Of a DNA stretch of 24,000 bases, positions 4,877 to 21,791 are shown piece by piece. The DNA is from Candidatus Nomurabacteria bacterium (lineage in GTDB: Bacteria > Patescibacteriota > Saccharimonadia > Saccharimonadales > UBA7683), in contig JACKGS010000003.1 in the NCBI GenBank assembly GCA_020631865.1, forward strand, positions 45,098-69,097, given 5' to 3'. A program made the position numbers and the translations under genes. The notes beneath the pieces were generated by a model. The model searched no databases and was not told the DNA's origin. It saw nothing but the letters and a program-made list of their open reading frames with translations. How positions within the stretch are numbered: the stretch's first letter is position 1; each line of letters opens with the position of its first letter.

Positions 4877-5131
4877 ATGGATAAATTCAGAAACCCGATT
4901 AAGCATAATCATGACACCGTAGTACAAACCCCAGAAGTATCCGGAATTAAGATTGCTGGATATGGGTTGATTCTTGGAGGGCTGGCAACGCTAGCAGAGG
5001 CGAGGCTTGGGGCACTAGGTTTACCAGCGAATTACGAAACTGGAGTGGCACTTATAACAGCAGGATTAACCACACTTAATGTTCGTGAAGTTCTCATTAG
5101 TACCAGTAAACACAAGGATACAAATGAATAA
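4877..5131 (+). CDS. small hypothetical membrane protein
   Basis: The 84-aa ORF has Gly/Ala/Leu-rich hydrophobic stretches. Its stop overlaps the gltX start as ATGAATAA, which suggests translational coupling. Confidence 0.4.
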   Translation: MDKFRNPIKHNHDTVVQTPEVSGIKIAGYGLILGGLATLAEARLGALGLPANYETGVALITAGLTTLNVREVLISTSKHKDTNE

Positions 5132-6554
5132 TATCAGGACTCGCTTTGCACCAAGCCCAACCGGGTTCCTGCATGTCGGTGGCATACGTACTGCTTTATT
5201 TGCATATTTAGTTGCAAAACAAGCTGATGGCCAATTTATATTACGACTTGAAGATACAGATCAAAAAAGAGAAGTTGAAGGCTCCGCTGAGCACTTGATG
5301 GAATCACTACATTCACTTGGTATTGAATACGATGAAGGGCCAGATAGACCTGGTGATTTTGGACCTTATCGTCAATCTAAGCGTTTAGATATCTACATAA
5401 AATGGGCTCAGAGATTAATTGACTCTGGCAGAGCCTACGCGGATCCATATTCCTCGGAAGAAGTTCAAAAATTTAGAGAACAAGCTCAGAAAACTAAACA
5501 GCCATTCTTATACCGTAATCATCGGCCAGAGAATCCGCCTGCATGGGACGGCAGCCAGCCACTAAGATTTAAATCAGACCCTAAAGAATATGAGTGGCAC
5601 GATGAAGTTATGGGGGACCTGAGGACAGGGCCGGAAGTAATTGATGATATTATTCTAATTAAATCTGATGGTTACCCAACATATAATTTTGCTCACATCG
5701 TTGATGATGCCGAGATGGAGATTACTCACGTAATTCGCGGACAGGAGTTCCTCTCCAGCCAACCGAATTACCTCAACCTCTACGAGGCGCTAGGGCTAGA
5801 GAAGCCTATTTTTGCCACCATGCCACACATCATGAACGATCAAGGCAATAAAAAGCTCGGTAAAAGAGATGGAGCAAAAGATGTGCTAGACTACATAAAA
5901 GACGGTTTTTTACCAGACGCAATGGTGAGCTTTATCGCTACCCTTGGTTGGAATGATAGCACTGAACAAGAAATCTTTACCAAAAAAGAACTGATTGAAA
6001 AATTTAGTTTAAACAGGGTAGGTAAGAGCGGTGCGCAATTTGATCAACGGCGACTTTTGTGGACGAACGGTCATTTTATTCGATCGCTTGACATCGATGT
6101 TTTATACACCCTTTGTCAAGACTACTGGCCAGAATCAGCCAAAAATGCTGACGAAGATTACAAAAAGCAGGTACTAACCCTGGTACAAGAGCGTATGAAG
6201 TATCTAGCCGAGCTACCAGAGCTAATTAATTTCTTCTTTGAAGAACCAGCACCCGACCTTGAACTAATTACATCTAACAAACAGCTCAAAAAACTAGATC
6301 ACAATCGGATAAAAGAACTACTAGAGCTCAGTAGACAGAATCTAGAACAAAGCAATTTCACTCATGGAGATATTCAAGAACAACTCAATCAACTCTTAGA
6401 CCAAACCGGCGAAAAACCAGCCGTAGTGTTCAGTCTAATCCGTATCGCGACTACTTGGGCCCCGGCCAGCCCTCAGTTAAACACCAGTCTAGCAGTTCTC
6501 GGTAAACAAACTACTCTATCCAGAATACAAAAGGCAATAGATCTACTAACATAG
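5124..6554 (+). CDS. gltX: glutamate--tRNA ligase
   Basis: The N-terminus RTRFAPSPTGFLHVGGIRTALF carries the class I HIGH motif. A KMSKS-like KKLGKRDG, YPTYNFAHIVDD and VIRGQEF are also present. The start is set at ATG 5124 (MNNIRTRF...); the 5079 start in the ORF track adds a non-homologous leader. Confidence 0.95.
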   Translation: MNNIRTRFAPSPTGFLHVGGIRTALFAYLVAKQADGQFILRLEDTDQKREVEGSAEHLMESLHSLGIEYDEGPDRPGDFGPYRQSKRLDIYIKWAQRLIDSGRAYADPYSSEEVQKFREQAQKTKQPFLYRNHRPENPPAWDGSQPLRFKSDPKEYEWHDEVMGDLRTGPEVIDDIILIKSDGYPTYNFAHIVDDAEMEITHVIRGQEFLSSQPNYLNLYEALGLEKPIFATMPHIMNDQGNKKLGKRDGAKDVLDYIKDGFLPDAMVSFIATLGWNDSTEQEIFTKKELIEKFSLNRVGKSGAQFDQRRLLWTNGHFIRSLDIDVLYTLCQDYWPESAKNADEDYKKQVLTLVQERMKYLAELPELINFFFEEPAPDLELITSNKQLKKLDHNRIKELLELSRQNLEQSNFTHGDIQEQLNQLLDQTGEKPAVVFSLIRIATTWAPASPQLNTSLAVLGKQTTLSRIQKAIDLLT

Positions 6555-6555
6555 C

Positions 6556-7293
6556 GTGATGAATAATTCTCAGCTGATTCATGATTTTCAAAATAACAAG
6601 CAAGGTAAGCACGTTATTATTGAAGGAGCACAGGCGCTAAAGCATGCTGTGAGGTTCGGGGCAGAAATTGAACATATTATCACATGTGATATATCTGAGC
6701 TAAATAAGTTAGTAGATGAGTTGGCACCTGATATATCACCTATGATATCAAGTAAAATTTTAGAGGTAGACGACGGAACTTTTCAAAAAATTAGCCCTAA
6801 AAATCATCGCACTAGAGTGGTGACGCTTGCCAAAAAACAAAATTATTTACTTAACGATATCGACAAGAGCAAACCAATTATATTTTTAGAAGATCCTAAA
6901 GATCTAGAAAATATCGGCGCTGTAATTAGAGCTTCAGCCGCCGCAGATGCCGGTGCAGTAATTACCGATGCTCAAGCCAGTGTTTGGCATCCGGCAGTAG
7001 TTAGGGGAGGGGCGGGTCTTCAGTACGCATTACCCGTGCTAAACTCAACCCTTACTGAAGTTATAAACTATTTCCCAAATAGAAAAATTATATCATTAGA
7101 TCCCGAAGGCGAAGACATCACTAACGAAAACATTGAAAATGACTGCATTTTAATATTTGGCACCGAACGGCATGGAATTAAGCCGGAAACATTAAAGAAA
7201 TCAGATAAGGTAGTGAGGCTATCCATGAAGCCAGGAGTCAGTAGCCTAAACCTAGCCACCTCGGTATCCGCAACGCTCTATTTAATTAAATAG
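6556..7293 (+). CDS. SpoU/TrmH-family RNA 2'-O-methyltransferase
   Basis: SPOUT motifs are present: LEDPKDLENIGAVIRASAAADAGAVI, ILIFGTERHGI and SSLNLATSVSATLY. The start is GTG 6556 or ATG 6559, 2 nt after the gltX stop. Confidence 0.85.
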   Translation: MMNNSQLIHDFQNNKQGKHVIIEGAQALKHAVRFGAEIEHIITCDISELNKLVDELAPDISPMISSKILEVDDGTFQKISPKNHRTRVVTLAKKQNYLLNDIDKSKPIIFLEDPKDLENIGAVIRASAAADAGAVITDAQASVWHPAVVRGGAGLQYALPVLNSTLTEVINYFPNRKIISLDPEGEDITNENIENDCILIFGTERHGIKPETLKKSDKVVRLSMKPGVSSLNLATSVSATLYLIK

Positions 7294-7333
7294 CATTTTT
7301 CCATTTTCCATTTTCCATTTTTCATTTTTCATT
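7294..7333. repeat. tandem heptamer repeat (C)CATTTT(T), about 5.5 copies
   Basis: The sequence reads cattttt ccatttt ccatttt ccattttt cattttt catt, directly after the TAG stop of the methyltransferase gene. Confidence 0.7.
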
Positions 7334-7394
7334 AAATTATGCGCCTCTACCGCATCTCTAGCAATTATATTAATCGTCTGTTAACATAAGCGTT

Positions 7395-8534
7395 ATGAAA
7401 GAAAAACAAACAAAATCTGATAGTTTTCATAAGTATAGTAATTATGAACCTCACCTAAAGCCTATCGACAAACCAAAAGGTGATAAGTTTAAGAAAATTA
7501 ACAAGTGGTTATCTAGCCACAAGTTTTTGGTTCTCTCTTTTATATCCATCCTAGCAATCACGCTAGGCGTAAGTGTTTACTACCTTTTTGGTACCATAGA
7601 TTACAGTACGCCAACGGTCGCAAGCGTCAAGAAGAAAGAGATCAAAAAAACCTATTCACCGTTAACCGGCACAGAAGTCAGTGAAGCAGACAGCAAGCTA
7701 CCACTCACCGCAGTAATGATAGAAAATAGCCCTGAGGCAAGGCCTCAGAGTGGTCTTAAAGATGCGGGCGTAGTATTTGAAGCAGTTGCCGAAGGTGGCA
7801 TAACTCGCTTTTTGGCTATTTATCAAGAAGCTAAGCCGGGTGTTATTGGGCCAGTCAGAAGTGTACGACCTCATTACGCAAGCTGGGTAGCAGCTTTTGA
7901 TGCCGGATTAGCTCATGTCGGCGGAAGCGACATACCACTAGCAAAACTCCGTAGCGGGCAAATTAAAGATTTAGATCAATTTTTTAATGCTGGAGCATAC
8001 TACCGCTCAAACGAACGCTATGCTCCACACAATGTTTATACATCTATGGAAAAGCTTCAGGGCCTTAATAATGCCAAGAAATATTCCACCAGCACATTCA
8101 CGTCATGGACAAGAGTAAAAAAAGAACAAGTATCACCAACTCCAACCGCTAAATCCATAGACATACCTGTATCTACCGGACTATTTGCCGTTCATTACGA
8201 CTGGGACCCAGCAACAAACAGCTATCAAAGAAGCCAGGGTGGCGGCGCACATATCGACAGAGAGGCGGGCAGAATAACACCCAAAGTAGTTATCACTATG
8301 CAAGTTCCTCATGATGTAATTAAAGAATCCAACCGCTACAGCTATCCAGATGTTATCGGAAGTGGAAAAGCCTGGCTATTCCAGAACGGCACAGTAACCG
8401 AAATAGGCTGGTCAAAAGCAAGTGATAAGGATCAAATTATCTTCACAGACCCCACCGGTAAACCCGTAGAATTTAACCGTGGCCAAACATGGATAACAGC
8501 AATCAAACCAGACAAAACACCATCCTGGCAGTAA
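7395..8534 (+). CDS. DUF3048 domain-containing protein (YerB-like, membrane-anchored)
   Basis: An N-terminal TM helix is followed by PLTAVMIENSPEARPQSGLKDAGVVFEAVAEGGITRFLAIY and RSVRPHY, which are characteristic of the DUF3048 family. Confidence 0.8.
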   Translation: MKEKQTKSDSFHKYSNYEPHLKPIDKPKGDKFKKINKWLSSHKFLVLSFISILAITLGVSVYYLFGTIDYSTPTVASVKKKEIKKTYSPLTGTEVSEADSKLPLTAVMIENSPEARPQSGLKDAGVVFEAVAEGGITRFLAIYQEAKPGVIGPVRSVRPHYASWVAAFDAGLAHVGGSDIPLAKLRSGQIKDLDQFFNAGAYYRSNERYAPHNVYTSMEKLQGLNNAKKYSTSTFTSWTRVKKEQVSPTPTAKSIDIPVSTGLFAVHYDWDPATNSYQRSQGGGAHIDREAGRITPKVVITMQVPHDVIKESNRYSYPDVIGSGKAWLFQNGTVTEIGWSKASDKDQIIFTDPTGKPVEFNRGQTWITAIKPDKTPSWQ

Positions 8535-8943
8535 AATACAGTATAAGCAGAAATAACTATACTGATTAATGAGCGATTTGGTATCTATAATCAAACTTTA
8601 GTATTTCACAACAATATTAAAGTTATATAATTTACATTAGCTGAAACACTAAGCTTCTTGCCAACCGTTCGAAAAAGCTGGTCTGACCCCTTTTCTGAAA
8701 CGCTGTCTAGTTACATTATAACTACCGTCAGGTTTACGATAGCTCTTGTTGCCTTACATAACTATAGCTTCGTTTCCATGGGCCACCCAGTGACATGGCT
8801 ATTTTTGAATGGTGCATTTTCTCTGGTATTGATTCACCGCCGCAAAGTAGCATCAAGGCAATAAATTATGCAGAACTAAAAAGAAGCTCGAGGTGGATGA
8901 CTAGCATCGTTCGTGCTTCAATATTCATATACTAGCAAAATAT

Positions 8944-9342
8944 TTAGCCTATGTCAATAACTTTGCCATGACGCGTAATAAACTTTATGGCCACGATCTT
9001 CGGCAATTCCAAAAGCTGTGTAGCCAACTCTCGCTCAACAGCTTTGTCTGGCATACCCTTCATACGCTTTGCGGTAAAGACTATTTTGTTAGACTGCCAA
9101 CCGGCTAATTTGAGATTACGCCTAACGGCCTTGAGGCTGCTAGTACGTGGTGATTTCATTTCCCACTTTTCACCGTCTATTAATACGTCGGGCGTTGATT
9201 CGTATTTTTTATCACTTGGTTTTATGAATTCAACTGTATAGCCAGCGTTCGCCAACCGATCTGCCATATATTGCTCATGCGGCCAGACATTAAGCCCGGC
9301 AATTTTGATTACTTTTCCAACTTTATTTGACATCACCTCCAT
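8944..9342 (-). CDS. small PD-(D/E)xK-type nuclease-fold protein (resembles stand-alone CdiA-CT/tRNA-nuclease-like toxin domains)
   Basis: The 132-aa ORF contains STPDVLIDGEKWEMKSP, which fits the D...ExK catalytic motif. A downstream QSNKIVF strand follows. The family assignment is from memory of the motif pattern only. Confidence 0.45.
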   Translation of the reverse strand: MEVMSNKVGKVIKIAGLNVWPHEQYMADRLANAGYTVEFIKPSDKKYESTPDVLIDGEKWEMKSPRTSSLKAVRRNLKLAGWQSNKIVFTAKRMKGMPDKAVERELATQLLELPKIVAIKFITRHGKVIDIG

Positions 9343-9384
9343 TATACATCAAGAAGTTTTTCTACCTCTGTCTCCTCAGTATAC

Positions 9385-9495
9385 GGGTGAACCAAAACCA
9401 TCAAGGCAGTATTCGCCCATAAGATATAAGGTTTTTATTCTTTTTAATTGAATATCTTAAGGGGAATCTCCACCCTGACAGTTTTGGTTCATCCC
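9385..9495. repeat. 111-bp segment bounded by 11-14-bp inverted repeats (MITE-like element or regulatory hairpin)
   Basis: gggtgaaccaaaac (9385-9398) and gttttggttcatccc (9481-9495) are reverse complements over 11 contiguous bp, or 14 bp with one bulge. The segment lies just upstream of the minus-strand gene starting at 9342. Confidence 0.4.
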
Positions 9496-9702
9496 GAAGC
9501 CCTTTCTTTAAGAAAGAGCATTAATGCACCTCTCAGAAATGCTTCTTGACCTCTGTAATCCACTGCGCAAAGCTGCCTTTTTCGGTGCAATATTCAACAC
9601 AGTGCCGACCTACGCAGAAATAAACTTGAGAACCAATAAAATAAGCTCGCTACCAGAGGTAAACGAGCTGTTTCTTATTCGGACTTCTTTAAAATCCACG
9701 TA

Positions 9703-9721
9703 TGGTGATCCCGGCGGGATA
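9703..9721 (-). repeat. tRNA-3'-end-like 19-mer, copy 1 (att-like)
   Basis: tggtgatcccggcgggata is the reverse complement of TATCCCGCCGGGATCACCA. That reads as T-stem 3' strand, acceptor 3' strand, discriminator and CCA. It matches 13319-13337 at 18 of 19 positions. No cloverleaf is attached. Confidence 0.6.
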
Positions 9722-9866
9722 AACGCTTCGCTACTCTCTACGGCACTTACTCGAAGCAAGCTTCTGCGTCAGCACCTTGCGATCGAACCTCGAGGGTTCG
9801 GACTCTCTGCGAGAGCTAACCAAGTAAAAACCCCAGTCTTTTGACCGAGGCACTTGCTTGGTGACC
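9703..9866 (-). ncRNA. candidate structured RNA, copy 1 (unknown family)
   Basis: Hairpins present are cgaacc/ggttcg, ctctc/gagag, and a long composite hairpin ccaagta..ccccagtc-tttt-gaccgagg..tgcttgg. Two mismatches in the inner stem become G-U pairs only in the minus-strand transcript. The architecture and length match copy 2. Confidence 0.25.
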
Positions 9867-9994
9867 TCAAGAGTATCAATTTAGAACACCTTTTTGATGA
9901 TCTCTTTAGGCTTAAGAAGAAGTTCGAAGCACTCGGTATGGTAATTAAAGACAACCGGGTTTATATACCTGACTCGGCGGAACGTGATAGTTAG
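9854..9994 (+). CDS. small conserved peptide ORF or gene remnant, copy 1 (LGDLKSINLEHLFDDLFRLKKKFEALGMVIKDNRVYIPDSAERDS)
   Basis: It is similar at the protein level to the C-terminus of ORF 13388..13615, with synonymous and conservative codon changes (Leu ctt/ttg, Gly ggt/ggc, Asp gac/gat, Pro cct/ccg). A possible TTG start lies at 9854. It is in frame with ORF 9524..9844 across a single TGA. Confidence 0.3.
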   Translation: MLGDLKSINLEHLFDDLFRLKKKFEALGMVIKDNRVYIPDSAERDS

Positions 9995-10031
9995 CTTCAG
10001 CACAACAATGTCGAGTTTAAGCAAAATGCCC

Positions 10032-10202
10032 TAAGAGTCAGCGGACAGAGAAGCCGGCGTTACGATCATTGTTGTCAGCCGGGTTAACTTCATCAGCGTT
10101 GAAGTTCGCGTTGAAAGCATTGTCCGCAGAATCCGGGTGAGCCGAGGCCGCCCAAAAGTTGCCGTTGTCACCCTGGTTGTCGAACTCGCCGTTCCAGTTG
10201 CC
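10032..10202 (-). repeat. DGR template repeat (TR), non-coding
   Basis: It aligns over 171 nt without gaps to 11624-11794. All 24 differences are at plus-strand T, which is sense-strand A, in this copy. The sense strand has 13 AAY codons in the VR frame and an in-frame TGA, so this copy is not translated. Confidence 0.9.
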
Positions 10203-10443
10203 AGAAATCGCAGAAGTCCCGGGACGGCGCGCGCTTGTTAATACTGCTCCCTGTATTGCACTCAGCGTACCGAGTACAAGCAGACCCTGGTGGCGCTTCC
10301 TGTAATAGAACTAGCCGAGATACTAATCAAAGCTAGTGAGTATTGTCTCTTAGGTATGCTTGTCGGGTTGGCGATTCATCAGTCAACCAGCTATATATGA
10401 GCCACCAAGAGTTGTCTGCTCTTGCGCCAAACCAAGCACACTT

Positions 10444-11529
10444 TTATTGTACACCCCGAGCAATATCTACCATTTTCAGCAAGCGGCAATGCTTGTAGTG
10501 TTTTACCAGCCCCTTGTATGAGGCTTCGGTTTCCGGTGAGCAGTCTGCATTGGACAGTGCAGCTACCAAATTATGTTTCAAACGCTTACCGGGATGCAAC
10601 CGAAATGGATAGACAACAGCGCCAAGAAAGGCGACGCCCTTGTTGCACTCTTGTAAATGTCGTTTGCGCGGATGCAAAACTAGGCTCAGCTCACTGCTAA
10701 CATATCTCTCGATAACCTTACTGGCTTCTACCAGCTCTGCTTTGTTGGTAGAGATGAGGTAGAAATCATCTACGTAGCGTCCATAGTGCTTAAAGCCAAG
10801 CTCAAATGTTACAAATCGATCAAGTTGATCCAGGTAGATATTGCTCAGCAGCTGCGAGGTCAGGTTGCCAATAGCCACACCGCGACCAAGAGGCTGGTGA
10901 AACAAGCTTTTGCTCGGCGGCAGGCCTTTCCAGGCGCTGCGCGGACAGTTGAACACCGCGTCTTTGAGGGGATCATTAAAGATAATGACTTTCCATAAGA
11001 ACTTGCACAGTTGGTAGACATAACCTTTATCTGGGAATTGCCTATCCAGCCCCCACATGGCCCTTTTATAGAGTTTTTTACGATCTAAGCTCATAAAGTA
11101 CCCCTGGAGATCAAGCTTGAGTATGTAGGCTGGCCGAGTATAATTACGGCTCACCGAGCGGATGTGATGATCCAAACGGCGAATACCGTAGAGCGTGCCT
11201 TTACCGATACGGCAGCTGTAGTTATCTTCAATAAATCGGGCGTCCCACCACTTGCTGACTTGGTTGAACAGAAAGTGGTGTACCACTCTGTCACGGAAGG
11301 CGGCGGCGAATATCTCCCGCTTGACAGGCTTGTTCACGATGAACGCCGTAGATGGCCGCGGTACGTACCTGCGCGAGTGAATTTCTTTGGCCAGTGCTGC
11401 AAGTTCAGACTCCGCGATAGCATCGAACTTTTCTACCTCGGGCTTTTTAGTCTTGCCGCGCCGGGCATCGAGGTAGGCTTTTTTGAGCTCTTTGGCAAGC
11501 CAGTCAGCGCGTTTGTCTGGTGTGTTCAT
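10444..11529 (-). CDS. DGR-type reverse transcriptase
   Basis: The 361-aa ORF carries REIFAAAFRDRVVHH, LDLQGYF, AIGNLTSQLLSNIYL (the DGR-typical [ILV]GxxxSQ motif) and the catalytic RYVDDFYLI (YxDD). It has no maturase or endonuclease extension. It sits between VR and TR. Confidence 0.9.
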   Translation of the reverse strand: MNTPDKRADWLAKELKKAYLDARRGKTKKPEVEKFDAIAESELAALAKEIHSRRYVPRPSTAFIVNKPVKREIFAAAFRDRVVHHFLFNQVSKWWDARFIEDNYSCRIGKGTLYGIRRLDHHIRSVSRNYTRPAYILKLDLQGYFMSLDRKKLYKRAMWGLDRQFPDKGYVYQLCKFLWKVIIFNDPLKDAVFNCPRSAWKGLPPSKSLFHQPLGRGVAIGNLTSQLLSNIYLDQLDRFVTFELGFKHYGRYVDDFYLISTNKAELVEASKVIERYVSSELSLVLHPRKRHLQECNKGVAFLGAVVYPFRLHPGKRLKHNLVAALSNADCSPETEASYKGLVKHYKHCRLLKMVDIARGVQ

Positions 11530-11550
11530 GTCAGCTAGATTTCTTTCGGA

Positions 11551-11618
11551 GCAACCCAGTCGACTCGACGGGTTCGGTCGTGGTCACTCCCTCACGCCAG
11601 CTTCGCTTAGTGGGTTGC
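11551..11618 (-). promoter_or_regulatory. stem-loop in the 88-nt target-RT intergenic region, immediately 3' of VR
   Basis: gcaaccca (11551-11558) pairs with tgggttgc (11611-11618, overlapping the target stop codon). The enclosed 52 nt contain smaller GC-rich palindromes, gtcgactcgac and cgacgggttcggtcg. Confidence 0.35.
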
Positions 11619-13033
11619 TACTGTAAGAGACAGCGGACAGAGAAGCCGGCGTAACGAACATTGTAGGCAGCCGGGTGAACTTCAACAGCGCCGAAGCCCG
11701 CGAAGAAAGCATAGTCCGCAGAATCCGGGTGAGCCGAGGCCGCCCAAAAGACGCCGTAGACACCCTGGTAGCCGAACTCGCCGACCCAGAGGCCCGAGAA
11801 GACCCCTTTAAAGGCACCGTTATACTGCCACTGGGCAATGTTGGGTTCGCCACTATATGCAGGAGCACCGGTACCACCAAAGGCAATGTCGAGGTCAGAG
11901 AAGTCGCCGGAGTAGACATCTTCTCCTTCGTCATCATCCCAGATCTGTGAAGCGGTCGGTAATCGCCAGTTGGCCGGGCAGATAGAGTACGGGGCATCAC
12001 CGTCTTCTTCGGTGTGGGAGGTTCTGGATTCACCGGCTGTGGCCGCAGACCAGTTGTAGAGGTAGCCGTAGTTGGTAGCACCACTGCCAGTGTCACCGGG
12101 GATTGGGCCGTAGACGAAAGGTGTATCGAAGAGGTTATCTTCGTCTTCCTGAGTATCCATAGGGGGATTGTCGGTAATCTGTGGCAGGGTCAGGTTACTG
12201 GCAATGTTGGTATCGCTTGGGGTCAGCGTCATGGTGGATGTGGTAGAACCAAGTTTGAGGTTCTGAAGCATCCAGCAGTTACCATCGGCTAGTTTGGCGA
12301 CTTGGTAGGTTTGGGTGGTGCCACCACGACTGTCGGTGAGTTCTATGACTGCTTCTTCATTGCTACCAGTGTAGGTAGCAAGGGCATCACATTGCTGAGG
12401 AGTAAAGCTTTGCATGGTTGCACTAGTTGCACCGTTGTCGGTGATGGCGTAGGCAAGCTTGAGATCTTTCTTGCCTGCAGTTACAGTGCTGTCAATGGTG
12501 AAATCTAACGTTACTTCGGTTGTGTCGTTGGAAGTGGCAGTTTCGGTGGTTTTGAGAGTCAGAGCTGGGTCGCCAGCGCCAAGTACTGTGCTCGTAGCTA
12601 TATCGCCACCCTTGAGCTTGATACTAATACCAGGTTCAGCTGCGGTTAGGGCTGCGGTCAGGGTATAGCCGCCTTCGTTAGCGGTGCCGGTAGTGAGGGT
12701 AGTTGTGGTACTGGCGGTACCACCACCCTCCGGGACGGTAACAGTGAGAGCCTCTTGGTTAGCGCCAATACTGAGGGTGGGAGCAGCGGAGATGGAACTA
12801 CTGAGAGGACTGAGCGTGAGGCTGGCGGTGAAGAGTGCGAGGAGGAAGAAGCTGCCCATACCACGGAAGTTGAGTTTATGCGAACGGCGGGAGAGGTAGC
12901 GCCAACTGAAGATGCTGGAAGCTATGAGAGCGAGGGCTGTAGCGAGGAGCGGTAAGAGTGATATGCCTGTTGAAGCGAGACCATCTCCCCCGATGATGAT
13001 GTTGATCGTTTGGGTAAGTGTTTGGGTTTCCAT
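11618..13033 (-). CDS. DGR target protein: secreted or surface protein with a Thr/Ala/Gly-rich beta region and a C-terminal lectin-like (Fibrobacter-succinogenes-major-paralogous / C-type-lectin-fold-like) variable domain
   Basis: The N-terminus has hydrophobic segments with a signal-peptide-like FLLALFTASLTLSPLSSSISA-AP. Domain landmarks are YQVAKLADGNCWMLQNLKLG, YGYLYNWSAAT, ICPANWRLPT and the terminal AGFSVRCLLQ. The last 57 codons are the VR. An AGAGGA sequence lies 5 nt before the ATG. Confidence 0.85.
   Translation of the reverse strand: METQTLTQTINIIIGGDGLASTGISLLPLLATALALIASSIFSWRYLSRRSHKLNFRGMGSFFLLALFTASLTLSPLSSSISAAPTLSIGANQEALTVTVPEGGGTASTTTTLTTGTANEGGYTLTAALTAAEPGISIKLKGGDIATSTVLGAGDPALTLKTTETATSNDTTEVTLDFTIDSTVTAGKKDLKLAYAITDNGATSATMQSFTPQQCDALATYTGSNEEAVIELTDSRGGTTQTYQVAKLADGNCWMLQNLKLGSTTSTMTLTPSDTNIASNLTLPQITDNPPMDTQEDEDNLFDTPFVYGPIPGDTGSGATNYGYLYNWSAATAGESRTSHTEEDGDAPYSICPANWRLPTASQIWDDDEGEDVYSGDFSDLDIAFGGTGAPAYSGEPNIAQWQYNGAFKGVFSGLWVGEFGYQGVYGVFWAASAHPDSADYAFFAGFGAVEVHPAAYNVRYAGFSVRCLLQ
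11624..11794 (-). repeat. DGR variable repeat (VR) inside the target gene 3' end
   Basis: This is the partner of TR (coordinate offset 1592). It encodes GLWVGEFGYQGVYGVFWAASAHPDSADYAFFAGFGAVEVHPAAYNVRYAGFSVRCLL. TR in the same frame encodes GNWNGEFDNQGDNGNFWAASAHPDSADNAFNANFNADEVNPADNNDRNAGFSVR*LL. Confidence 0.9.
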
Positions 13034-13250
13034 GTGTTCCTCTGCTCTCTTTACTTTTCTTATGTCTGCTGTACTTGAGTGTAATGAGTGGATAGCAAAA
13101 TGGTAAGAAATTGCTTAATCCATTGTTTTTGCTTCCACTTCACCTCACTATATTAATACTGCTTACGTATATTCTACATCATTATGAACGGAATGCAAGC
13201 AGTTTAGTACCCCCGCGGGGTTAAAACTCCATCCTACGTAGGTAATGTAC

Positions 13251-13286
13251 AAAAAAGAATGTGTTCTTAGATATATTTAAGAACAC
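13251..13286 (-). terminator. Rho-independent terminator-like hairpin (minus strand)
   Basis: A 9-bp stem gtgttctta/taagaacac (13261-13269 / 13278-13286) encloses an 8-nt loop. On the minus strand it is followed by AUUCUUUUUU (13251-13260). It lies 33 nt downstream of the CCA-like end at 13319 and upstream of the DGR target promoter region. Confidence 0.5.
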
Positions 13287-13318
13287 TTTCTTATCTGTGA
13301 TTTATCTGATTTTATGCT

Positions 13319-13337
13319 TGGTGACCCCGGCGGGATA
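13319..13337 (-). repeat. tRNA-3'-end-like 19-mer, copy 2 (att-like)
   Basis: tggtgaccccggcgggata is the reverse complement of TATCCCGCCGGGGTCACCA. It matches 9703-9721 at 18 of 19 positions. Confidence 0.6.
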
Positions 13338-13490
13338 GCGGACTTTGTCCTTTTCCGCTTAGACATGCTCGGAGTTAACTCCTGCGCGTGTCTGCGCTAC
13401 ACCGTACCCGCTTCGCGTGTTTCGGTTCTCGTAGAGAACCACCAATAAAATACCCCACCGCAAGGGTGAGGTATTTTATTGGTGAGCCCA
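13319..13490 (-). ncRNA. candidate structured RNA, copy 2 (unknown family)
   Basis: An 18-bp hairpin ccaataaaataccccacc-gcaag-ggtgaggtattttattgg has one C-A mismatch on the plus strand that becomes G-U on the minus strand. Other hairpins are the 7-bp ggttctc-gta-gagaacc, ggag-ttaa-ctcc inside agaca..tgtct, and gcgga..tccgc. The element ends in the CCA-like 19-mer and is followed by the terminator at 13251-13286. Confidence 0.3.
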
Positions 13491-13615
13491 CTAGTATTAA
13501 TTTAGAACACCTTTTTGATGATCTCTTTAAGTTGCGAGATAGGTTCAAAGCACTAGGCATGGAGATTAAAGATGGCAAAGTGTATTTGCCGGATTTGGAG
13601 ACTGATCATGTTTAA
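13478..13615 (+). CDS. small conserved peptide ORF or gene remnant, copy 2 (IGEPTSINLEHLFDDLFKLRDRFKALGMEIKDGKVYLPDLETDHV)
   Basis: This is a homologue of 9854..9994. The frame is open from 13379 and the ORF track uses GTG 13388. No canonical start lies next to the conserved part, so the 5' end is uncertain. Its stop overlaps the PLD gene start as ATGTTTAA. Confidence 0.35.
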   Translation: MGEPTSINLEHLFDDLFKLRDRFKALGMEIKDGKVYLPDLETDHV

Positions 13616-14072
13616 TTATCGTGGTTCGATCTCAGGACTTTATGACCAAAACACATTTGATGGGCAATTTCTAAAAGACATTGCTAGGGCACGTAGCAGT
13701 CTGGTGATTGAAAGCCCATTTATCAGGTTGGGTAGGGTAGAGCAACTATTGTCTGTAATAGCTAAGCTCCGTCGCCGCGGAGTGACTGTGATTATCAACA
13801 CCCGAAGCCCTAAGGAGCATGACAATGTCTACGAAACTCAGGCTGAAGAAGCTATTGAAATGCTCCAGAATTTAGGCGTAACGGTACTATTTACTGTGAA
13901 ACACCACCGTAAATTAGCAGTTATTGATGGTGAGGTGTTTTATGAAGGGAGTCTTAATATTCTCTCCTACTATGATAGTTGTGAGATAATGAGACGAACG
14001 GTATCACCAAGTGAAGCCGAGGTACTCCTACGATTCATTGGACTGCAAAAATACCTAACGAAAGCGAGCTAG
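13608..14072 (+). CDS. PLD/HKD-superfamily nuclease-like protein (single HKD domain)
   Basis: HHRKLAVIDGEVFYEGSLNI fits HxK(x)4D(x)6GSxN exactly. It is about 155 aa, the size of Nuc-type single-domain members. I prefer the start at ATG 13608 (MFNYRGS...); the track start at 13572 adds a Cys/Trp-rich leader. Confidence 0.75.
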   Translation: MFNYRGSISGLYDQNTFDGQFLKDIARARSSLVIESPFIRLGRVEQLLSVIAKLRRRGVTVIINTRSPKEHDNVYETQAEEAIEMLQNLGVTVLFTVKHHRKLAVIDGEVFYEGSLNILSYYDSCEIMRRTVSPSEAEVLLRFIGLQKYLTKAS

Positions 14073-14074
14073 CT

Positions 14075-14302
14075 ATGGACGATGTAGATATATTCAAAGA
14101 TAAACACCTGTATGAAGATGAGGAAACTATCATCAAGACGATCAATTATTTGAAGCTAAACGACCCAGAAAATGCTAATCGTGAATATGCCATTGGTTTT
14201 CTTAAATTCATGCAACGATTCGCATTCCACGCCGAAAAAGTTGGCGAACTGAATTACGACGACTTTTTTCAGAAGTATAAACAATCAAAAAGTGACATCT
14301 AA
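14075..14302 (+). CDS. small acidic hypothetical protein
   Basis: The 75-aa ORF starts 2 nt after the PLD gene stop. I recognise no motif. Confidence 0.45.
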   Translation: MDDVDIFKDKHLYEDEETIIKTINYLKLNDPENANREYAIGFLKFMQRFAFHAEKVGELNYDDFFQKYKQSKSDI

Positions 14303-14305
14303 ACG

Positions 14306-16903
14306 TTAGTCATCAATTTTCTTCCTGTTCTTAGTAGTTGTCTTTGATGCTTCATCACTCTTGGTACGGTCACTGCTTTTTGTTATGACTTTTTGCCTTT
14401 GGTTGCCCTCAGTTACGGGTGACGCTTCCTGCTTCTTAGCAAATGATGCACGTGACAACTCTATGGCACGTTGTGAGACTTCTTGACTCCCATCACCAAC
14501 TAGTAACAATGTTTGACCAGACATGGGCTCCTGGGGTGTAATAGCAGATAATTTGGCATAGAAGTTAAAGGCCGGAACGTTACTCATCTCTCCTTGTTCA
14601 ATATATGGCGAAAAGAGTGGTAGTAATAATCTTTCATCTTCAGGATTTCCAGTTCTAAAACTAATGATCGTACCGACGTTTGCCAAGATGATACTTACCA
14701 TCTGCTGGTCTTTTTGTTGAGAAGTAGACTGTTCAGCCATCACCATAAATAACTTATACTTCCGTGATTCAGACAGCATCTGCACGAATGAAGACGTGGC
14801 AAAGTTCTGGAACTCATCAACGTACAAATAAAAATGTCGACGTTCACTCTGGGGGATACGGGCCCGCCGCAAACTGGCTAGCTGCAATTTAGCAAGTACA
14901 GTGATCCCAAACAATTCCGAAGTATCTTCACCAAGAATACCTTTAGAAAAGTTACAGATAAGAATCTTACCTGAGTTAATGATGTCATCGAAATCAATGG
15001 TAGAACGTGGTTGTTCGAGGATTTGCTTAGCAGAAGCTGAGAACAAAAACCGTCCGATCTTTGCCGTGATACCGGCTGCCATTTTAACTTTCTGCATGTC
15101 TCCAGCTTTACCAAGTTCGTTATTCCAAAAGTTAATTAGGTTTTTATCTTCCAGTGTTTTTATAATCTTTTTTCTATACTTAGTATCATTGAGTAGATCA
15201 AAGACCGTGAACAGGGTAGCGCCTTCTACTGTCAGGGCGGTTTGTATGGTGTTTCGAAGGACATATTCAATGCGGTGACCGCCGGTGTCTTCTTCTGAAA
15301 ATATCTTCCGAAATACCGAAATGACAGATTCAGTAATGATATCTTTTTCCCTCAGTAAATCATTACCAGATATCTCGGGAGTAAGCTCCAAGATATTGAG
15401 CCCAATGGGGTACTCTAAATCATCTGGATTGAAGTAAACGACGTCATCGATGCGATCTGGTGGCACATGTCGAAGTAGCGTTTCTGCCATGTCGCCGTGC
15501 GGGTCAATGATTGCGACACCTTTGCCACTTCTCATATCTTGAGTAATGGCGTACTGCAGCATGGTTGTCTTACCGTTACCAGTGCCACCAATGATGTACA
15601 TATGTCGCTCACGCTCTGGTTCAGTTAAACCAATGAGTGTTTCAGTGCCTCTGTGTATATTTTTTCCAATAATGACATCAAGTGCATGATGTTGCTTGAG
15701 GGATATTGGTGCCGGAAGGGTCCGACTGAGCGAACTTACAAGATTATCTGTTTTACTTATGTAGCTGCTGGGGAAGTGGAATAAACTAGATAACTCTGAA
15801 GCGGAAAGTATTAATGAATGTGAACGATAAATACCTGGAAGCCTCAAGCTGGCAAGCTTTAATTGGTAAGCCCGAAGGAGCGGATTATACATTTTGGCAC
15901 GAAGTTCTTGGTACGGCGGCACCGAGTATGCATCAAGCGAAGATTTCAAAGCCGACACGTGATCCTTGGTGTGATTACTGGTGATAAGCAGTCTGAGATC
16001 TACCTGGAAAAGGGGCTGGGTGAGTTTTTGGTGCATTGATTCCATAAGCTCTAATTCAAAAGCACTGAGCGTTCGAGCCGGACGTTGGCGTTTCATAACC
16101 TGGGCTTGAAACTGCGCATCTTTGCCCGACTTGTTTTTGTAATGAGCATCGGTTGAGCCGTTATATACTTCACCGACCATTTCGGTCGCTCCGAGCATAG
16201 CACCACCAAGTACATCGGTCAGCGAATGAAGCCGCGAAAGCTTACCCTGTTCAACTCGCCGCAGTATATCTTCGTTACTTAAGATTCTTCGAGATAGTTT
16301 ACGCGCTTCAGGAAGGTGAACCGGCGTAACAACGAGCTGCATGGATATTTGCTCGTCGTCTGCTAAATTTGTCATAGCGCTGGTGATATATGACAGCGGA
16401 TCGTGTTGATCAAACGCTTTGGAGGTGCTGATAGGTAGTACGTAGTGATTCTTCTGAGTAAACTCGATAACCTTGTCCGCGGGCTTAGGATGATAATCGA
16501 CGATACTCACTTTACTATCCGGGATGTAAGCAGCTATGGCTTTTTGGACGGTGCTGCTGTGTTTTTTCTCGATTTGAATATAGAAGCGGATACCGCTAGA
16601 TTTGGTTGAGGTGATCTCGAAACTCGACGTTGGACTACGCTTTAAGATTCGATCGCGCAATGCCCGTGCGGCGTATAATCCATGAATGACGGAGAATAGT
16701 TGCTGAGTGGCTTCTGGTGTCTTTTTGATAGAAAGCGGGGGAGTCACTTCAAGCCAGACGAGGTCACGATGGTAGAGATATCTTCTGTTCAGAATTAGTA
16801 TGAGCAGCTTACATATGAATACGGTGGCGACTGCAGTGAATAGGCTAATGACTATAGTAGGCCACTGCTCAATGATGGTAGAGATATATCCTGGGGGTTC
16901 CAT
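14306..16903 (-). CDS. type IV secretion coupling protein (VirD4/TraG/TraD-like ATPase)
   Basis: An N-terminal TM helix is present. Walker A is MYIIGGTGNGKTT and Walker B is HFYLYVDEFQNFAT. The intervening AIIDPHGD and the LFMVMAEQS motifs are typical of T4SS DNA-transfer/TraD-type ATPases. The C-terminal tail is Lys/Ser/Thr-rich. Confidence 0.8.
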   Translation of the reverse strand: MEPPGYISTIIEQWPTIVISLFTAVATVFICKLLILILNRRYLYHRDLVWLEVTPPLSIKKTPEATQQLFSVIHGLYAARALRDRILKRSPTSSFEITSTKSSGIRFYIQIEKKHSSTVQKAIAAYIPDSKVSIVDYHPKPADKVIEFTQKNHYVLPISTSKAFDQHDPLSYITSAMTNLADDEQISMQLVVTPVHLPEARKLSRRILSNEDILRRVEQGKLSRLHSLTDVLGGAMLGATEMVGEVYNGSTDAHYKNKSGKDAQFQAQVMKRQRPARTLSAFELELMESMHQKLTQPLFQVDLRLLITSNHTKDHVSALKSSLDAYSVPPYQELRAKMYNPLLRAYQLKLASLRLPGIYRSHSLILSASELSSLFHFPSSYISKTDNLVSSLSRTLPAPISLKQHHALDVIIGKNIHRGTETLIGLTEPERERHMYIIGGTGNGKTTMLQYAITQDMRSGKGVAIIDPHGDMAETLLRHVPPDRIDDVVYFNPDDLEYPIGLNILELTPEISGNDLLREKDIITESVISVFRKIFSEEDTGGHRIEYVLRNTIQTALTVEGATLFTVFDLLNDTKYRKKIIKTLEDKNLINFWNNELGKAGDMQKVKMAAGITAKIGRFLFSASAKQILEQPRSTIDFDDIINSGKILICNFSKGILGEDTSELFGITVLAKLQLASLRRARIPQSERRHFYLYVDEFQNFATSSFVQMLSESRKYKLFMVMAEQSTSQQKDQQMVSIILANVGTIISFRTGNPEDERLLLPLFSPYIEQGEMSNVPAFNFYAKLSAITPQEPMSGQTLLLVGDGSQEVSQRAIELSRASFAKKQEASPVTEGNQRQKVITKSSDRTKSDEASKTTTKNRKKIDD

Positions 16904-17412
16904 GTTTGAGCTCCTCTCATGCCATGAATAAATGAATAGCTGATTGCAGCATCTTTAGAAAAGGTACGTTTGCTTACTATGTTAAGTCCAAGTACATTCA
17001 TCTCCGATATGGTGAATTCTCCAGTCATACTATCGACATGTATAACGTAGGCTACATGACCAAACTCTCCGGAATCGGTTTGGAAAATTGCACCAACGGC
17101 AGGGGTGTTATTGACTTCATAGCCATCATTCCATGCTCGATCGTCCCACGTATTGGCGTTGCCCCAACTTGTGGGGATAGGGTAACCGGCCCAATGACGC
17201 ATTGAATACACCCAGTAGGTACAGTTGCCCCAAGCGTAGGTATTGCCCTCAGCGTGCCCCCCAGTATAGAAACCTTGCGATTCAGCTGCAGCCAAGCTTG
17301 GTACATTTGAAAGAAACGATAACACACTGCCGCCCATAGAAAATACTGCTGCGAAGGGCAGAGCAATAATCACTGACATAGTGGCGAGAAGCAGTATGAG
17401 CTGTTTCTTCAT
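16852..17412 (-). CDS. secreted CHAP-domain peptidoglycan hydrolase (VirB1 functional analogue)
   Basis: It has a signal or TM segment MKKQLILLLATMSVIIALPFAAV, a catalytic Cys in WGNCTYWV and a His in FGHVAYV. An alternative GTG start lies at 17457. The 3' end overlaps the coupling-protein start by 52 nt. Confidence 0.75.
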   Translation of the reverse strand: MKKQLILLLATMSVIIALPFAAVFSMGGSVLSFLSNVPSLAAAESQGFYTGGHAEGNTYAWGNCTYWVYSMRHWAGYPIPTSWGNANTWDDRAWNDGYEVNNTPAVGAIFQTDSGEFGHVAYVIHVDSMTGEFTISEMNVLGLNIVSKRTFSKDAAISYSFIHGMRGAQTWNPQDISLPSLSSGLL

Positions 17413-17453
17413 ATTGCCGCTAGTGACTACATTCAGCGCTACGAAACCTACAC

Positions 17454-19202
17454 TCACGTGTACAGCTCCGCAGGATCAGTGGTAATGAGCGGATGCTCTT
17501 TTTCGCTCGCGACCACTTTTACAGCCACATGATTCTGATCCGCAATAATCAGCGCATCTCCACGCTCACAGGTGAGCAGAAACTGTTGTTCATACTCTGA
17601 GAGATTAAATTCACTAACGACGCCTTTGATAGTCGTAGTGTCTTGGCGCATCAGAATTCTTAGCGCTGACTGCGAGGCAATAGCCCGACCGTAGCAGTTC
17701 TTCAAAAAGTCATCAGCTTGTTGGGTAATGATGGAAACTCCGAGGTAGTATTTTCGAGCTCGTCTGACAAGTCCAGCCACAAACTGGGCACTTTGCTCAT
17801 GCTCAAGTAGTAACCAACCTTCATCGATGACCAGTAAGCGTTTTTCTGGACGGGCTTTGACTTGATTCTGAATAAAGGTAGAGATTATCAGCATCATGAT
17901 CGGACGTAGGTCTCCGGGCATGTCTTTGATATCGAAAACCACCAGGCGATTATCTAATTTAATGTTGGTGTGTGAATTGAAGACTTCGGCAATGGATCCG
18001 GTTATATATTTCTCCAGCCGTTCACAGAGCTGCAAATGACCCAACTTATGTAACTCAGCGTACAGATCTTGAAGCAGTGGTTGCTCATTTTTGGCTTTTT
18101 TATAGACTTTGAGGATTGCTTTATCGACTGCCGCTTTTTCACGTTTTTCGAGACCCTCGGCCATCAAGGCTATCACTGCTGTTAGATCCTGAACATGTTC
18201 AGCAAGATCACTTTTGGAATGAAAAGTACTGGCTAGATCAAACGGGTTAATCTTTTGTTTGCTTTTAGCAGATAGTTTTATGTAGGTGCCACCAACTGAC
18301 TCACTAAGGTTTTTATATTCCCGTTCTGGATCAATGACCAGCACTTTGGTGCTCTGCATGAGCTGCCGGAGTATCTCTACTTTGGTGGTGTAGCTTTTAC
18401 CTGAGCCACTTTGTGCAAAGACTATTGAGTTAGCGTTATGGAGTGCGAAGCGGTCTAAAATAACCAGTGAGTTATTCGACTTATTAACGCCGTAGAGGAT
18501 GCCGGATTCTTGGACTAACTCGGAGCTCATAAATGGGAAGGTGAGGGCGGCGGAACTACTATCGAGGTTCCGTTTTTGAGAAAGCTGGTCTTCACTTCTG
18601 GGTAGAACCGACTGCAGAGCTTCAAGTTGTTCATAGCGGGCAACTTTAGAGTAAAACAGGCGAGCGGATAGAGTCGCTTCCAGGAGCTTGGTAATCTTAT
18701 TGAGCTCGGTCAAACTATCGGCACGGAGGCATACATAGATGGCCATTTGGAAGAGCTTTTCTTGACCACGTTGAATCTTGTCGCGAAGTTCAATAGCAGA
18801 TTCTAGTGGGTCAGTGATTTCTGAGCCAACTATCTTACCAGCTCGCATCATGGCTCGCTTGGTACTCTCAAGCTCAGTTATCTTACGATGTAGTTTTGGT
18901 AGAGCAAGCAGGGCATCCACTTCATGCAGATGATAGCTGATATCACTATCATGGTTAAAGTTAATTAAACTATCCATCCAGCCGGAACTGGCTACAAACG
19001 GGTAGCCAGATATATACAGTGTTCTAATATAGACGCCGTCCAGTAAGAGGTAATCGGGATTTTCTTCTAGTCCAGCATAGCTCAGAATATCCACGGCATC
19101 TTGTTCGCCAAATGTTAGCGATAATTCACTTCGTTTGTTTTCTCTGGCTCGTTTTTGTTGTTTGATTTTGTCTTTGGTTCGTTCAAGTAGTTTACCTGGC
19201 AT
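17454..19202 (-). CDS. virB4: VirB4-family T4SS ATPase, C-terminal two thirds (ATPase part of a split VirB4)
   Basis: Walker A is VFAQSGSGKSYTT and Walker B is RLLVIDEGWLLLE. LGVSIITQQ is also present. The N-terminus YIRTLYISGYPFVASSGWMDSL matches the middle region of Gram-positive VirB4/TcpF/PrgJ-type proteins. An AAGGAG sequence lies 7 nt before the ATG. Confidence 0.85.
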   Translation of the reverse strand: MPGKLLERTKDKIKQQKRARENKRSELSLTFGEQDAVDILSYAGLEENPDYLLLDGVYIRTLYISGYPFVASSGWMDSLINFNHDSDISYHLHEVDALLALPKLHRKITELESTKRAMMRAGKIVGSEITDPLESAIELRDKIQRGQEKLFQMAIYVCLRADSLTELNKITKLLEATLSARLFYSKVARYEQLEALQSVLPRSEDQLSQKRNLDSSSAALTFPFMSSELVQESGILYGVNKSNNSLVILDRFALHNANSIVFAQSGSGKSYTTKVEILRQLMQSTKVLVIDPEREYKNLSESVGGTYIKLSAKSKQKINPFDLASTFHSKSDLAEHVQDLTAVIALMAEGLEKREKAAVDKAILKVYKKAKNEQPLLQDLYAELHKLGHLQLCERLEKYITGSIAEVFNSHTNIKLDNRLVVFDIKDMPGDLRPIMMLIISTFIQNQVKARPEKRLLVIDEGWLLLEHEQSAQFVAGLVRRARKYYLGVSIITQQADDFLKNCYGRAIASQSALRILMRQDTTTIKGVVSEFNLSEYEQQFLLTCERGDALIIADQNHVAVKVVASEKEHPLITTDPAELYT

Positions 19203-21790: not shown

Positions 21791-21791
21791 A

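Follow-up and report, generated by a model that had tools for sequence, protein, structure and literature searches.

Integrative elements stacked at tRNA-Glu in a Saccharibacteria genome, probably placed by a serine recombinase that carries its attachment site within its own gene

We analyzed 24,000 nucleotides (nt) from Candidatus Nomurabacteria bacterium, a member of the Saccharimonadales (contig JACKGS010000003.1, positions 45,098 to 69,097; hereafter, the window). The window contains a diversity-generating retroelement (DGR) and, to its right, a phospholipase D (PLD)-like nuclease gene and a cluster of type IV secretion system (T4SS) genes, and a repeat module lies at the left end of each. 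Each module begins with a 19-nt repeat (the 19-mer), which the initial annotation had interpreted as the remains of a tRNA 3' end, left by two islands with related ends that accreted at a tRNA gene. We think it likely that the window covers the left part of a series of integrative elements, stacked behind the 3' end of a tRNA-Glu(CTC) gene on the minus strand, and that these were placed by a serine recombinase whose gene is split by its own integration. Positions 9865-13318 are a DGR island without an integrase, and the sequence from 13486 onward is a T4SS island that resembles an integrative and conjugative element (ICE). The features of the modules and the two islands are listed here with the evidence for each; att stands for attachment site, L-numbers are loci or contigs of relatives, and P-numbers are protein homologs.

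9524-9702, plus strand: S0, a recombinase remnant, the last ~60 codons, up to ...KSTY (nhmmer profile, protein homologs)
9703-9858, minus strand: U1, a spacer unit of 156 nt (match to L002; covariance model, 161 bits)
9859-9864, plus strand: TGGTGA core b, putative attL crossover and left boundary of all inserted DNA (L002, L138)
9865-9994, plus strand: tail1, the last 43 codons and the stop codon of a recombinase gene, with a 31-nt repeat (the 31-mer) at 9878-9908 (in frame with 9524-9702 if U1 is removed; tblastn)
9865-13318: DGR island, with tail1, template repeat (TR), reverse transcriptase (RT), variable repeat (VR), target gene, and right arm (Pfam, L138)
13319-13479, minus strand: U2, a spacer unit of 161 nt and of a diverged type (covariance model, 134 bits)
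13480-13485, plus strand: TGGTGA core d, putative attL crossover of the T4SS island (L136, L003)
13486-13615, plus strand: tail2, the last 43 codons and the stop codon, with the 31-mer at 13499-13529 (the stop overlaps the start of the PLD-like gene: ATGTTTAA, 13608-13615)
13486-24000: left part of the ICE-like T4SS island, which runs off the window (Pfam; gene order in L003, L004, and L080)

Both repeats are located, and match each other, as had been claimed. The 19-mer is TGGTGATCCCGGCGGGATA at 9703-9721 and TGGTGACCCCGGCGGGATA at 13319-13337 (18/19 identical); these are its only two matches in the window at up to 3 mismatches, and there were none in 100 shuffles. The 31-mer, AATTTAGAACACCTTTTTGATGATCTCTTTA, is identical at 31/31 positions, with a chance expectation of 0. 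A repeat search also pairs 9847-9977 with 13468-13598 at 73% identity. Within each module, TGGTGA occurs a second time, at 9859-9864 and at 13480-13485, which is 156 and 161 nt past the first (at 9703 and 13319). The window has a single tRNA gene, for tRNA-Leu(CAA), at 608-692 on the minus strand (ARAGORN, Rfam); as the initial annotation stated, neither 19-mer is part of a cloverleaf, and neither ARAGORN nor a permissive Rfam scan (E <= 10) found a tRNA at 9703 or 13319. The first 18 nt of the 19-mer are the antisense of the 3' end of the intact tRNA-Glu(CTC) in L001 and L002, whose ...ATCCCGCCGGGATCACCA is their exact reverse complement. This bears out the proposed origin from a minus-strand tRNA, and the match covers only the 18 3'-terminal nt. 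A scan of viral contigs for the 19-mer gave no match, and most of its matches in metagenomes are unrelated GC-rich coding DNA. From its sequence, each module appears to be a spacer unit (U), the second TGGTGA as a crossover core, and a 43-codon recombinase tail that holds the 31-mer. We also noticed that the 19-mer copies (9703-9720, 13319-13336, and ~2001-2020 of L138) are 18-19 nt long and end at tRNA position 59/58, in the T-loop. The primer-binding site of retroviruses covers the same extent of a tRNA 3' end, and we found no link between these 18-19-nt tRNA 3'-end copies and reverse transcription.

A relative that lacks the inserted DNA, which was the check that the initial annotation had suggested, does exist. 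L002 is 96% identical to the window from 786 to 9864, and the homology stops exactly at 9864. Past TGGTGA, L002 has an intact minus-strand tRNA-Glu(CTC), then PAS/HisKA, response regulator, RluB, and Der genes, and everything to the right of 9864 in the window is missing. So the DNA from 9865 rightward is an insertion at the CCA end of the tRNA. The junction at core d is defined by L136, which is 96% identical to the window from 13474 rightward (tail2, the PLD-like gene, and a 75-aa open reading frame [ORF]) and in which a terminator flank of unrelated sequence, without U, precedes TGGTGA on the left. At 13480, homology to the uninterrupted L003 ORF also restarts. Both junctions of the DGR island, namely U1 end-TGGTGA-tail1 on the left (attL) and TGGTGA plus the pseudo-tRNA end of U2 on the right, are kept in L138, which is 87% identical to 9858-13527 and where neither the flanking U units nor the host genes are those of the window. 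There, the same left arm meets another U at TGGTGA; the U on the left is of the TTC type and follows HisKA-response regulator host genes, and the one on the right, which differs as well, is followed by TGGTGA and a tail. At the leftmost junction in the window (9703-9708, or a), the 3' remnant of a recombinase gene meets the pseudo-tRNA end of U1; L002 is alike in this, and so is L081, whose U is a third variant.

These comparisons agree with the earlier idea of two adjacent islands, which are indeed separate, have related left ends, and are each found with other flanks (L138 and L136). Their limits need to be corrected to 9865-13318 and 13486 onward, instead of 9.7-13.3 kb and 13.3 kb onward, and both left ends carry a 3' tail that was split off from a recombinase gene and that holds the 31-mer. 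The idea of accretion at a tRNA 3' end was also largely right, except that the core is only TGGTGA and that, in each module, it is the second TGGTGA that forms the key junction. These islands did not leave the 19-mers behind as att scars, contrary to what had been thought. Instead, the 19-mers are the distal ends of pre-existing U units, as in L087, L115, L116, and L118, where U lies downstream of tRNA-Glu without any element at that site.

The reading frame across module 1 points to the source of the tails. The ORF from 9524 enters the first hexamer as ...KSTY-GD, and the same frame resumes past the second as GDLKSINLEHLFDDLF... and stops at 9994. If we excise the 156 nt between the two copies of TGGTGA, the result is a 104-aa ORF with uninterrupted homologs of 103-105 aa (P0001, P0004, P0008), which come from Saccharibacteria. 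Other homologs read ...KSTYGDPGGIRTRD, into the antisense of the tRNA: past ...YGD, they continue as PGGIRTRDLLDENQ, which is translated antisense tRNA. In full-length relatives, the region that corresponds to S0 is the C-terminus of Resolvase-domain proteins of 576-613 aa, and an nhmmer profile from 68 recombinase 3' ends matches 9587-9701 (E = 5e-28). S0 together with 9703-9708 is an attR-type junction of an older, decayed element. The window itself contains just these last ~60 recombinase codons and the two tails.

To see the whole gene, one has to look at relatives. A scan of one genome per Saccharibacteria species gave 80 loci, 71 of them with the conserved ...VNELF...YG motif. The ORF ends at the GGTGA of a minus-strand tRNA-Glu in 63 of these 71 loci (38 CTC and 25 TTC); the 8 exceptions are 3 contig ends, 2 uninterrupted copies, 1 locus that contains U (L081), and 2 odd cases. 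At about 24 loci, the ORF is full length (576-613 aa), with a Pfam Resolvase domain, RVSSDKQ, and a putative zinc ribbon (CPKC...HC). Full-length relatives score 30.5-31.3 bits for Pfam Resolvase, as compared to the cut-off of 23.3, have RVSSDKQ or RVSTTKQ as serine motifs, and show a heptad-like (coiled-coil-like) stretch; for the L123 protein, the precomputed matches also include Pfam Recombinase. By sequence, then, the enzyme appears to be a large serine recombinase of ~580-610 aa whose attP lies within the 3' coding end of its own gene.

TGGTGA is the only sequence that is common to attP and attB, and all four types of att site were observed: attB in L002; attP-like sites in L003 and L052; attL at 9859 and 13480 of the window and in L045, L055, and L136; and attR in L001 and 63 other loci. 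In L001, the tRNA and its right flank are those of L002, and to the left is a Resolvase-domain gene (frameshifted in the assembly) whose ...KSTYGD end runs directly into the tRNA. At the distal ends of decayed elements, the 43-codon tail is found after a terminator flank and TGGTGA and before a PLD-like gene (L045, L055), and tblastn places tails 3.8-6 kb to the left of recombinase remnants in L026, L029, L056, and L057. A second subfamily of the recombinase, in L122/L123, has the same geometry. There, a complete element of ~10.5 kb carries a DGR, in the order tRNA-Glu(TTC), recombinase, Replic_Relax, DGR target and RT, VirD4-like, helix-turn-helix, PLD, tail, TGGTGA, and terminator.

The uninterrupted attP-like junctions (L003 10001-10318, L140 9592-10062, and L052 4820-5062) are in remnants directly upstream of PLD. 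In L003, T4SS genes also follow the remnant, and in L140, a T4SS pilin gene is just upstream of it. These remnants resemble the junction of a circular form that became fixed in the chromosome, perhaps by way of tandem copies and then deletion. In all of the lineages that we examined (window 13608-13615, L003, L045, L123, L136), the ATG of PLD overlaps the stop of the tail (ATGTTTAA or ATGTTTAG), so in the circular form, translation of PLD would be coupled to that of the recombinase gene.

The spacer units deserve a description of their own. U1 is the same as L002 10180-10335 except for 5 mismatches (at 9842-9856), and in L002 the unit abuts the intact tRNA-Glu(CTC). The right end of U1 (~9820-9858) is a terminator-like hairpin, and its plus-strand start (9703-9720) looks like a pseudo-attB that is occupied here. 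As for U2, its first 6 nt (TGGTGA c, 13319-13324) are the right junction of the DGR island, 13319-13336 is the copy of the antisense tRNA-Glu 3' end, and the units closest to it in sequence (L118 and L112) come immediately after tRNA-Glu(CTC). In general, U is 118-161 nt; it is directly 3' of tRNA-Glu(CTC) in L087, L115, and L118, in tandem in L116, and also present in L081, L112, and L138. On the tRNA strand, U has a terminator-like hairpin, whose lower stem includes the CCA of the tRNA, and further hairpins, and it ends in ...TATCCCGCCGGGRTCACCA. In a MAFFT alignment of 7 sequences, 92% of cells pair, versus 80% if shuffled and 29-54% if the partners are slid, and 17 pairs change on both sides versus 2-5 if slid. 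In an alignment of 11 sequences that was fitted to a covariance model, and which therefore leans towards the structure, 91% are paired versus 31-54% if slid, and 22 pairs change on both sides versus 3-9. Several G-U pairs are possible on the tRNA strand only. When the two most divergent copies are included, RNAalifold loses the consensus. In L087, the 3' end of U is unlike that of the adjacent tRNA, so U is not a simple local duplication. No Rfam family matched U, and we rejected transfer-messenger RNA, tRNA-like, T-box, signal recognition particle, and other known RNAs on that basis. These comparisons lead us to conclude that U is a conserved structured element that would supply a secondary integration site; it is a candidate for an RNA gene, a terminator/insulator module, or a maintained scar. 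Our more specific suggestion is tentative, and we would not expect it to hold: U may be an undescribed family of structured RNA, on the tRNA strand after tRNA-Glu and with a tRNA-like hairpin and ACCA end, that doubles as a portable extra attB. If this were true, then islands could accumulate in arrays on U landing pads while the tRNA stays intact, and U would spread by hitch-hiking in composite elements, as U2 appears to do here.

We propose that the stack formed as follows. The attP would lie within the coding sequence of the recombinase, ~43 codons before the stop, at ...TAT GGT GA..., and the target would be TGGTGA, the antisense of the TCACCA-3' end of the tRNA. Because attP is inside the coding sequence, integration would split the gene. 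The body of the recombinase gene would stay next to the tRNA and read into its antisense (attR), while the 43-codon tail and the PLD-like gene would end up at the distal end, beside the downstream flank of the tRNA (attL). Because U (~160 nt) ends in an 18-nt copy of the tRNA 3' end, each U would add another site, a pseudo-attB. The window would then contain, from left to right, what is left of an old element at U1's pseudo-site (9524-9708), U1, the attL at 9859-9864, the DGR island (9865-13318) with its right junction at the pseudo-site of U2, U2, the attL at 13480-13485, and the ICE-like PLD/T4SS island, with the recombinase gene and tRNA-Glu expected beyond 24000. The old element, which decayed to 9524-9702, would have come first, by using the pseudo-site of U1. 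A composite of the DGR island, U2, and the T4SS island would have entered later, at 9859-9864, having accreted at a tRNA-Glu locus whose spacer was of the U2 type. Another possibility is that each island entered a tandem of U1 and U2 on its own. If the DNA from the attL at 9859 to a tRNA-proximal attR were excised, this would regenerate exactly the arrangement in L002, so joint excision from 9859 may lie behind empty sites like that one. The sequence comparisons establish the positions of the four junctions, the empty site, the recombinase family with its target, and that each island occurs independently; recombination activity, the sequence of events, and the place of the right end are inferred.

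Several observations weigh against this scenario. In this genome, the right end (recombinase and tRNA-Glu) would lie past 24000, outside the sequence covered here. No full-length recombinase gene with its tail attached was found, although the circular form should have one: all of the uninterrupted copies (L003, L052, L140) are remnants that are truncated at the N-terminus, including P0005/L140, which we had considered as a full-length gene. The Pfam Recombinase domain scores 20.1 bits, below the cut-off of 21.1, in 1 of 3 proteins, and no relative of the recombinase by sequence was found in PDB. The nhmmer profile finds no recombinase 3' end to the left of 13319, so we placed the right junction of the DGR island by the comparison with L138 alone. 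(By eye, there is a faint E.FLI...GD likeness there, which we dropped given the negative profile search.) With no integrase and no recombinase 3' end to the left of 13319, the DGR island is non-autonomous and possibly immobile, and it probably cannot excise alone. Finally, the divergence between the window and L002 is a mosaic across the junction region (9527-9864 versus 10004-10341 of L002): ~19% at 9527-9658, mostly at third-codon positions of the recombinase remnant; 0% at 9659-9841; and then 5 mismatches at 9842-9856, in the terminator beside the crossover. So homologous recombination has also shaped this locus, and the mosaic suggests gene conversion among element remnants.

Could homologous recombination account for the modules altogether? 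If they arose by Campbell-type recombination or segmental duplication between tails, then the 31-nt block would be a tract of crossover or conversion. Besides the mosaic, this would fit with a perfect 31-nt block inside flanks that are only 73% identical, and with the tail2 of L136, whose two differences within the block suggest homogenisation within the window's genome. But at every boundary, the DNA on one side becomes unrelated exactly at TGGTGA (9864 versus L002, 13480 versus L136, and 9858 and 13319-13324 versus L138), and homologous exchange would not be so precise. We consider it quite improbable as the origin of the modules, and it may have occurred in the tails in addition. In particular, because of the differences in L136 and the mosaic with L002, conversion between tails likely contributed to the 31-mer. 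The 31-mer lies 14-44 nt to the right of the core, within the coding sequence of the tail (NLEHLFDDLF), and its first bases, AATTTAGAACAC, seem by eye to be an imperfect inverted repeat of TTCTTTAAAA, which is left of the core if U1 is taken out; this would fit an outer half-site of attP. So far as its sequence goes, the 31-mer might be partly the outer P' half-site of attP and partly the product of recent conversion between tails. Nor do we give much credence to the idea that the assembler created the layout by mis-joining contigs at the shared 31-mer, and this seems to us the least credible of the alternatives. The repeat is exactly 31 nt, and Logan contigs of the same island, which are assembled with k=31, begin at exactly 13500, within the 31-mer (L132, L134, L137), so it evidently disrupts assembly graphs in several samples. 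Yet independent metagenomic contigs span S0-U1-tail1 into TR (L108, 100% identical) and DGR-U2-tail2-PLD (L133 and L135, 96-99.5% identical), and L138 spans tail1 to the second tail in another genome. Thus, the layout is not an assembly chimera.

Other alternatives concern U. The 19-mers and the ~140 nt that follow might be scars of some other class of element (for example, of a tyrosine integrase with an 18-bp core) or decayed tandem copies of tRNA-Glu, in which case U would have no function. The 18-nt identity to the tRNA does stop inside the T-loop, U is in tandem in L116, and the copies in L081 and L138 resemble the local type of tRNA-Glu. Against this, no integrase or other gene is found inside U, tRNA models match nothing beyond its 3' end, the 3' end of U in L087 differs from that of the adjacent tRNA, and 11 copies from different genomes keep the same helices by compensatory changes. 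On balance, we think that scars or decayed tRNAs are a rather unlikely explanation, but one to keep in mind. A very improbable alternative is that the 156-nt segment is an intron-like or MITE-like (miniature inverted-repeat transposable element) insert in a 104-aa gene, with TGGTGA as the target duplication. Uninterrupted homologs do exist, the insert is in frame and flanked by TGGTGA, and the homolog P0002 reads through it. However, U is found downstream of tRNA-Glu with no ORF around it (L087, L115, L118), U2, with its 161 nt, does not keep the frame, what looks like a 104-aa gene is the 3' end of the gene for a 580-aa recombinase, and no ribozyme or intron family matched. Since U occurs by itself beside tRNA-Glu and the gene is the 3' end of a recombinase, we rejected an intron, a MITE, or translational bypass in a 104-aa gene.

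The proposed integration of a stack by a self-splitting serine recombinase can be compared with several known systems. At the att site of ICESt1 and ICESt3 of Streptococcus thermophilus, cis-mobilizable elements (CIMEs) accrete with ICEs. As in that system, we see tandem elements at the 3' end of one target gene, with internal att sites, with one element that lacks an integrase, and with the potential for joint excision from the outermost attL; the DGR island, with its att-type junctions and without integrase or transfer genes, is like a CIME. In contrast to ICESt1 and ICESt3, which use a tyrosine recombinase, the enzyme here is a serine recombinase, the target is the CCA end of tRNA-Glu, the common core is 6 bp, the internal sites come from a repeated structured unit (U), and the cargo is a DGR and a Saccharibacteria T4SS. 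In the Sulfolobus virus SSV1, attP is within the int gene, and integration into a tRNA gene partitions int. Both systems have attP in the integrase ORF, a tRNA as the target, and gene fragments at opposite ends of the element. But the tyrosine recombinase of SSV1 is cut near its middle, while only the last 43 codons would be cut from the serine recombinase, which would leave the integrated copy with its catalytic and DNA-binding domains. The system works like the split integrase of SSV and does not belong to that family.

Large serine recombinases include the integrases of phiC31, Bxb1, and SPbeta and the recombinases of Tn5397 and SCCmec. Like the phiC31/Bxb1 class, the recombinase has an N-terminal resolvase domain with the serine motif, sequence motifs that suggest a zinc ribbon and a coiled-coil region, and short att sites with very little identity between attP and attB. 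To our knowledge, enzymes of the phiC31/Bxb1 type mostly target protein-coding genes and have attP outside of the integrase ORF, whereas here the target is the 3' end of tRNA-Glu and attP is inside the ORF. In the integration-dependent immunity of mycobacteriophages, attP is inside the repressor gene. In those phages, as in the system proposed here, integration would alter the C-terminus, and the integrated and free states would have distinct forms of a protein, but the gene at issue here is the integrase and not the repressor.

A related issue is how this T4SS fits with those that were described from other Patescibacteria. A recent preprint (bioRxiv 10.1101/2025.01.22.634366) describes the T4SS of Patescibacteria as a fixed system of the chromosome, relaxase-poor or without relaxases and co-opted, and the cluster described there is the same as the one in the window, with VirB4, VirD4-like, and pilin genes. 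In a term search, its main text did not mention recombinase, integrase, or tRNA. Unlike in that description, an attL marks the beginning of the cluster in the window, and its other end in relatives has a Replic_Relax gene, then a gene for a serine recombinase and tRNA-Glu.

It is already known that elements can accrete in tandem at tRNA genes. What appears to be new is a serine recombinase that targets the CCA end of tRNA-Glu from an attP in its own ORF and is widespread in Saccharibacteria; the location, within such elements, of DGRs and of the T4SS cluster of these bacteria; and the U unit. Our literature searches found no description of this system of recombinase and islands. Mobile elements of Saccharibacteria are poorly described, and the comparisons here provide exact boundaries and a likely mechanism. 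An attL at the start and, in relatives, a relaxase-family gene, a recombinase, and tRNA-Glu at the end are the architecture of an ICE or an ICE-derived element, and the same recombinase system carries or strands DGRs. It would be unusual for a serine integrase to target the CCA end of a tRNA and to split off its own C-terminal tail, and the loss of the tail could serve as a switch that depends on the state, integrated or free. Short sites centred on TGGTGA, with many natural examples of attB, attP, attL, and attR, might also provide recombinase tools for bacteria that are hard to manipulate, and U is a candidate for a new RNA.

The DGR island has the following components.

10032-10205: TR (TR and VR are 86% identical)
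10444-11529, minus strand: RT (Pfam RVT_1)
11618-13033, minus strand: DGR target gene (Pfam Fib_succ_major)
11624-11797: VR (by the same 86% identity)
13034-13318: right arm, 285 nt

The features expected of a DGR are present, namely RT and a TR/VR pair at the 3' end of the target gene, and the RT and its target are the only genes in 9865-13318. A related DGR, with 81% identity of the RT, is cargo of the intact tRNA-Glu element in L122/L123, and homology to other DGR cassettes is limited to 10031-13036 (or to 13080 for L127). Just 88 nt separate the target gene from the RT gene (11530-11617), TR is downstream of the RT, with 36 nt between it and tail1, and the cassette shows no Avd-like ORF. 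In L136, another DGR-like set (560-2400) lies in a different flank, beside the same attL of the T4SS island. It has a bAvd-like ORF of 113 aa and an ORF of 347 aa whose C-terminus (GDFDYVVLADV...) is repeated in a nearby ORF, as TR and VR would be. DGRs recur next to these junctions.

The T4SS island has these genes, besides tail2.

13608-14072: PLD-like nuclease
14075-14302: 75-aa ORF
14306-16903, minus strand: VirD4-like gene
between the VirD4-like and VirB4-like genes: CHAP gene
17454-19202, minus strand: VirB4-like gene
within the island: pilin/TrbL-like genes

An 865-aa ORF matches TrwB_AAD_bind, TraG-D_C, and DUF87 from Pfam, while the assignments as VirB4/TraG P-loop, TraC-like, PrgI, and pilin were transferred from precomputed Pfam matches of homologs in L003 and L004, which have 50-80% identity to the T4SS ORFs of the window and are in the same order. 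With VirB4 and a coupling protein, the island from 13486 onward has the features of a conjugation-type T4SS, and the order tail-PLD-T4SS is also found in L003 and L080. Within the 10.5 kb of the island in the window, there is an attL and no relaxase or integrase. In L016, L025, and L053, the pilin end of the cluster is ~7 kb to the left of a full-length recombinase gene that abuts tRNA-Glu, and L025, the one of these loci that is annotated, has a Replic_Relax gene beside the recombinase. By this comparison, the recombinase and tRNA-Glu(CTC) of this genome should be ~7-10 kb beyond the window. The T4SS island also includes a Macro-domain protein (22913-23446, minus strand), and identical copies are found on short contigs from several samples (L128-L131).

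To the left of both islands, between a DUF3048 gene and the recombinase remnant, is a 132-aa ORF with a CdiA_C toxin-like domain (8944-9342, minus strand), which may be left-over cargo of the oldest element. Next to it, within 9343-9523, the stretch 9358-9411 is 93% identical to a stretch of the L001 element (4900-4953), with a weaker copy at 3800-3910.

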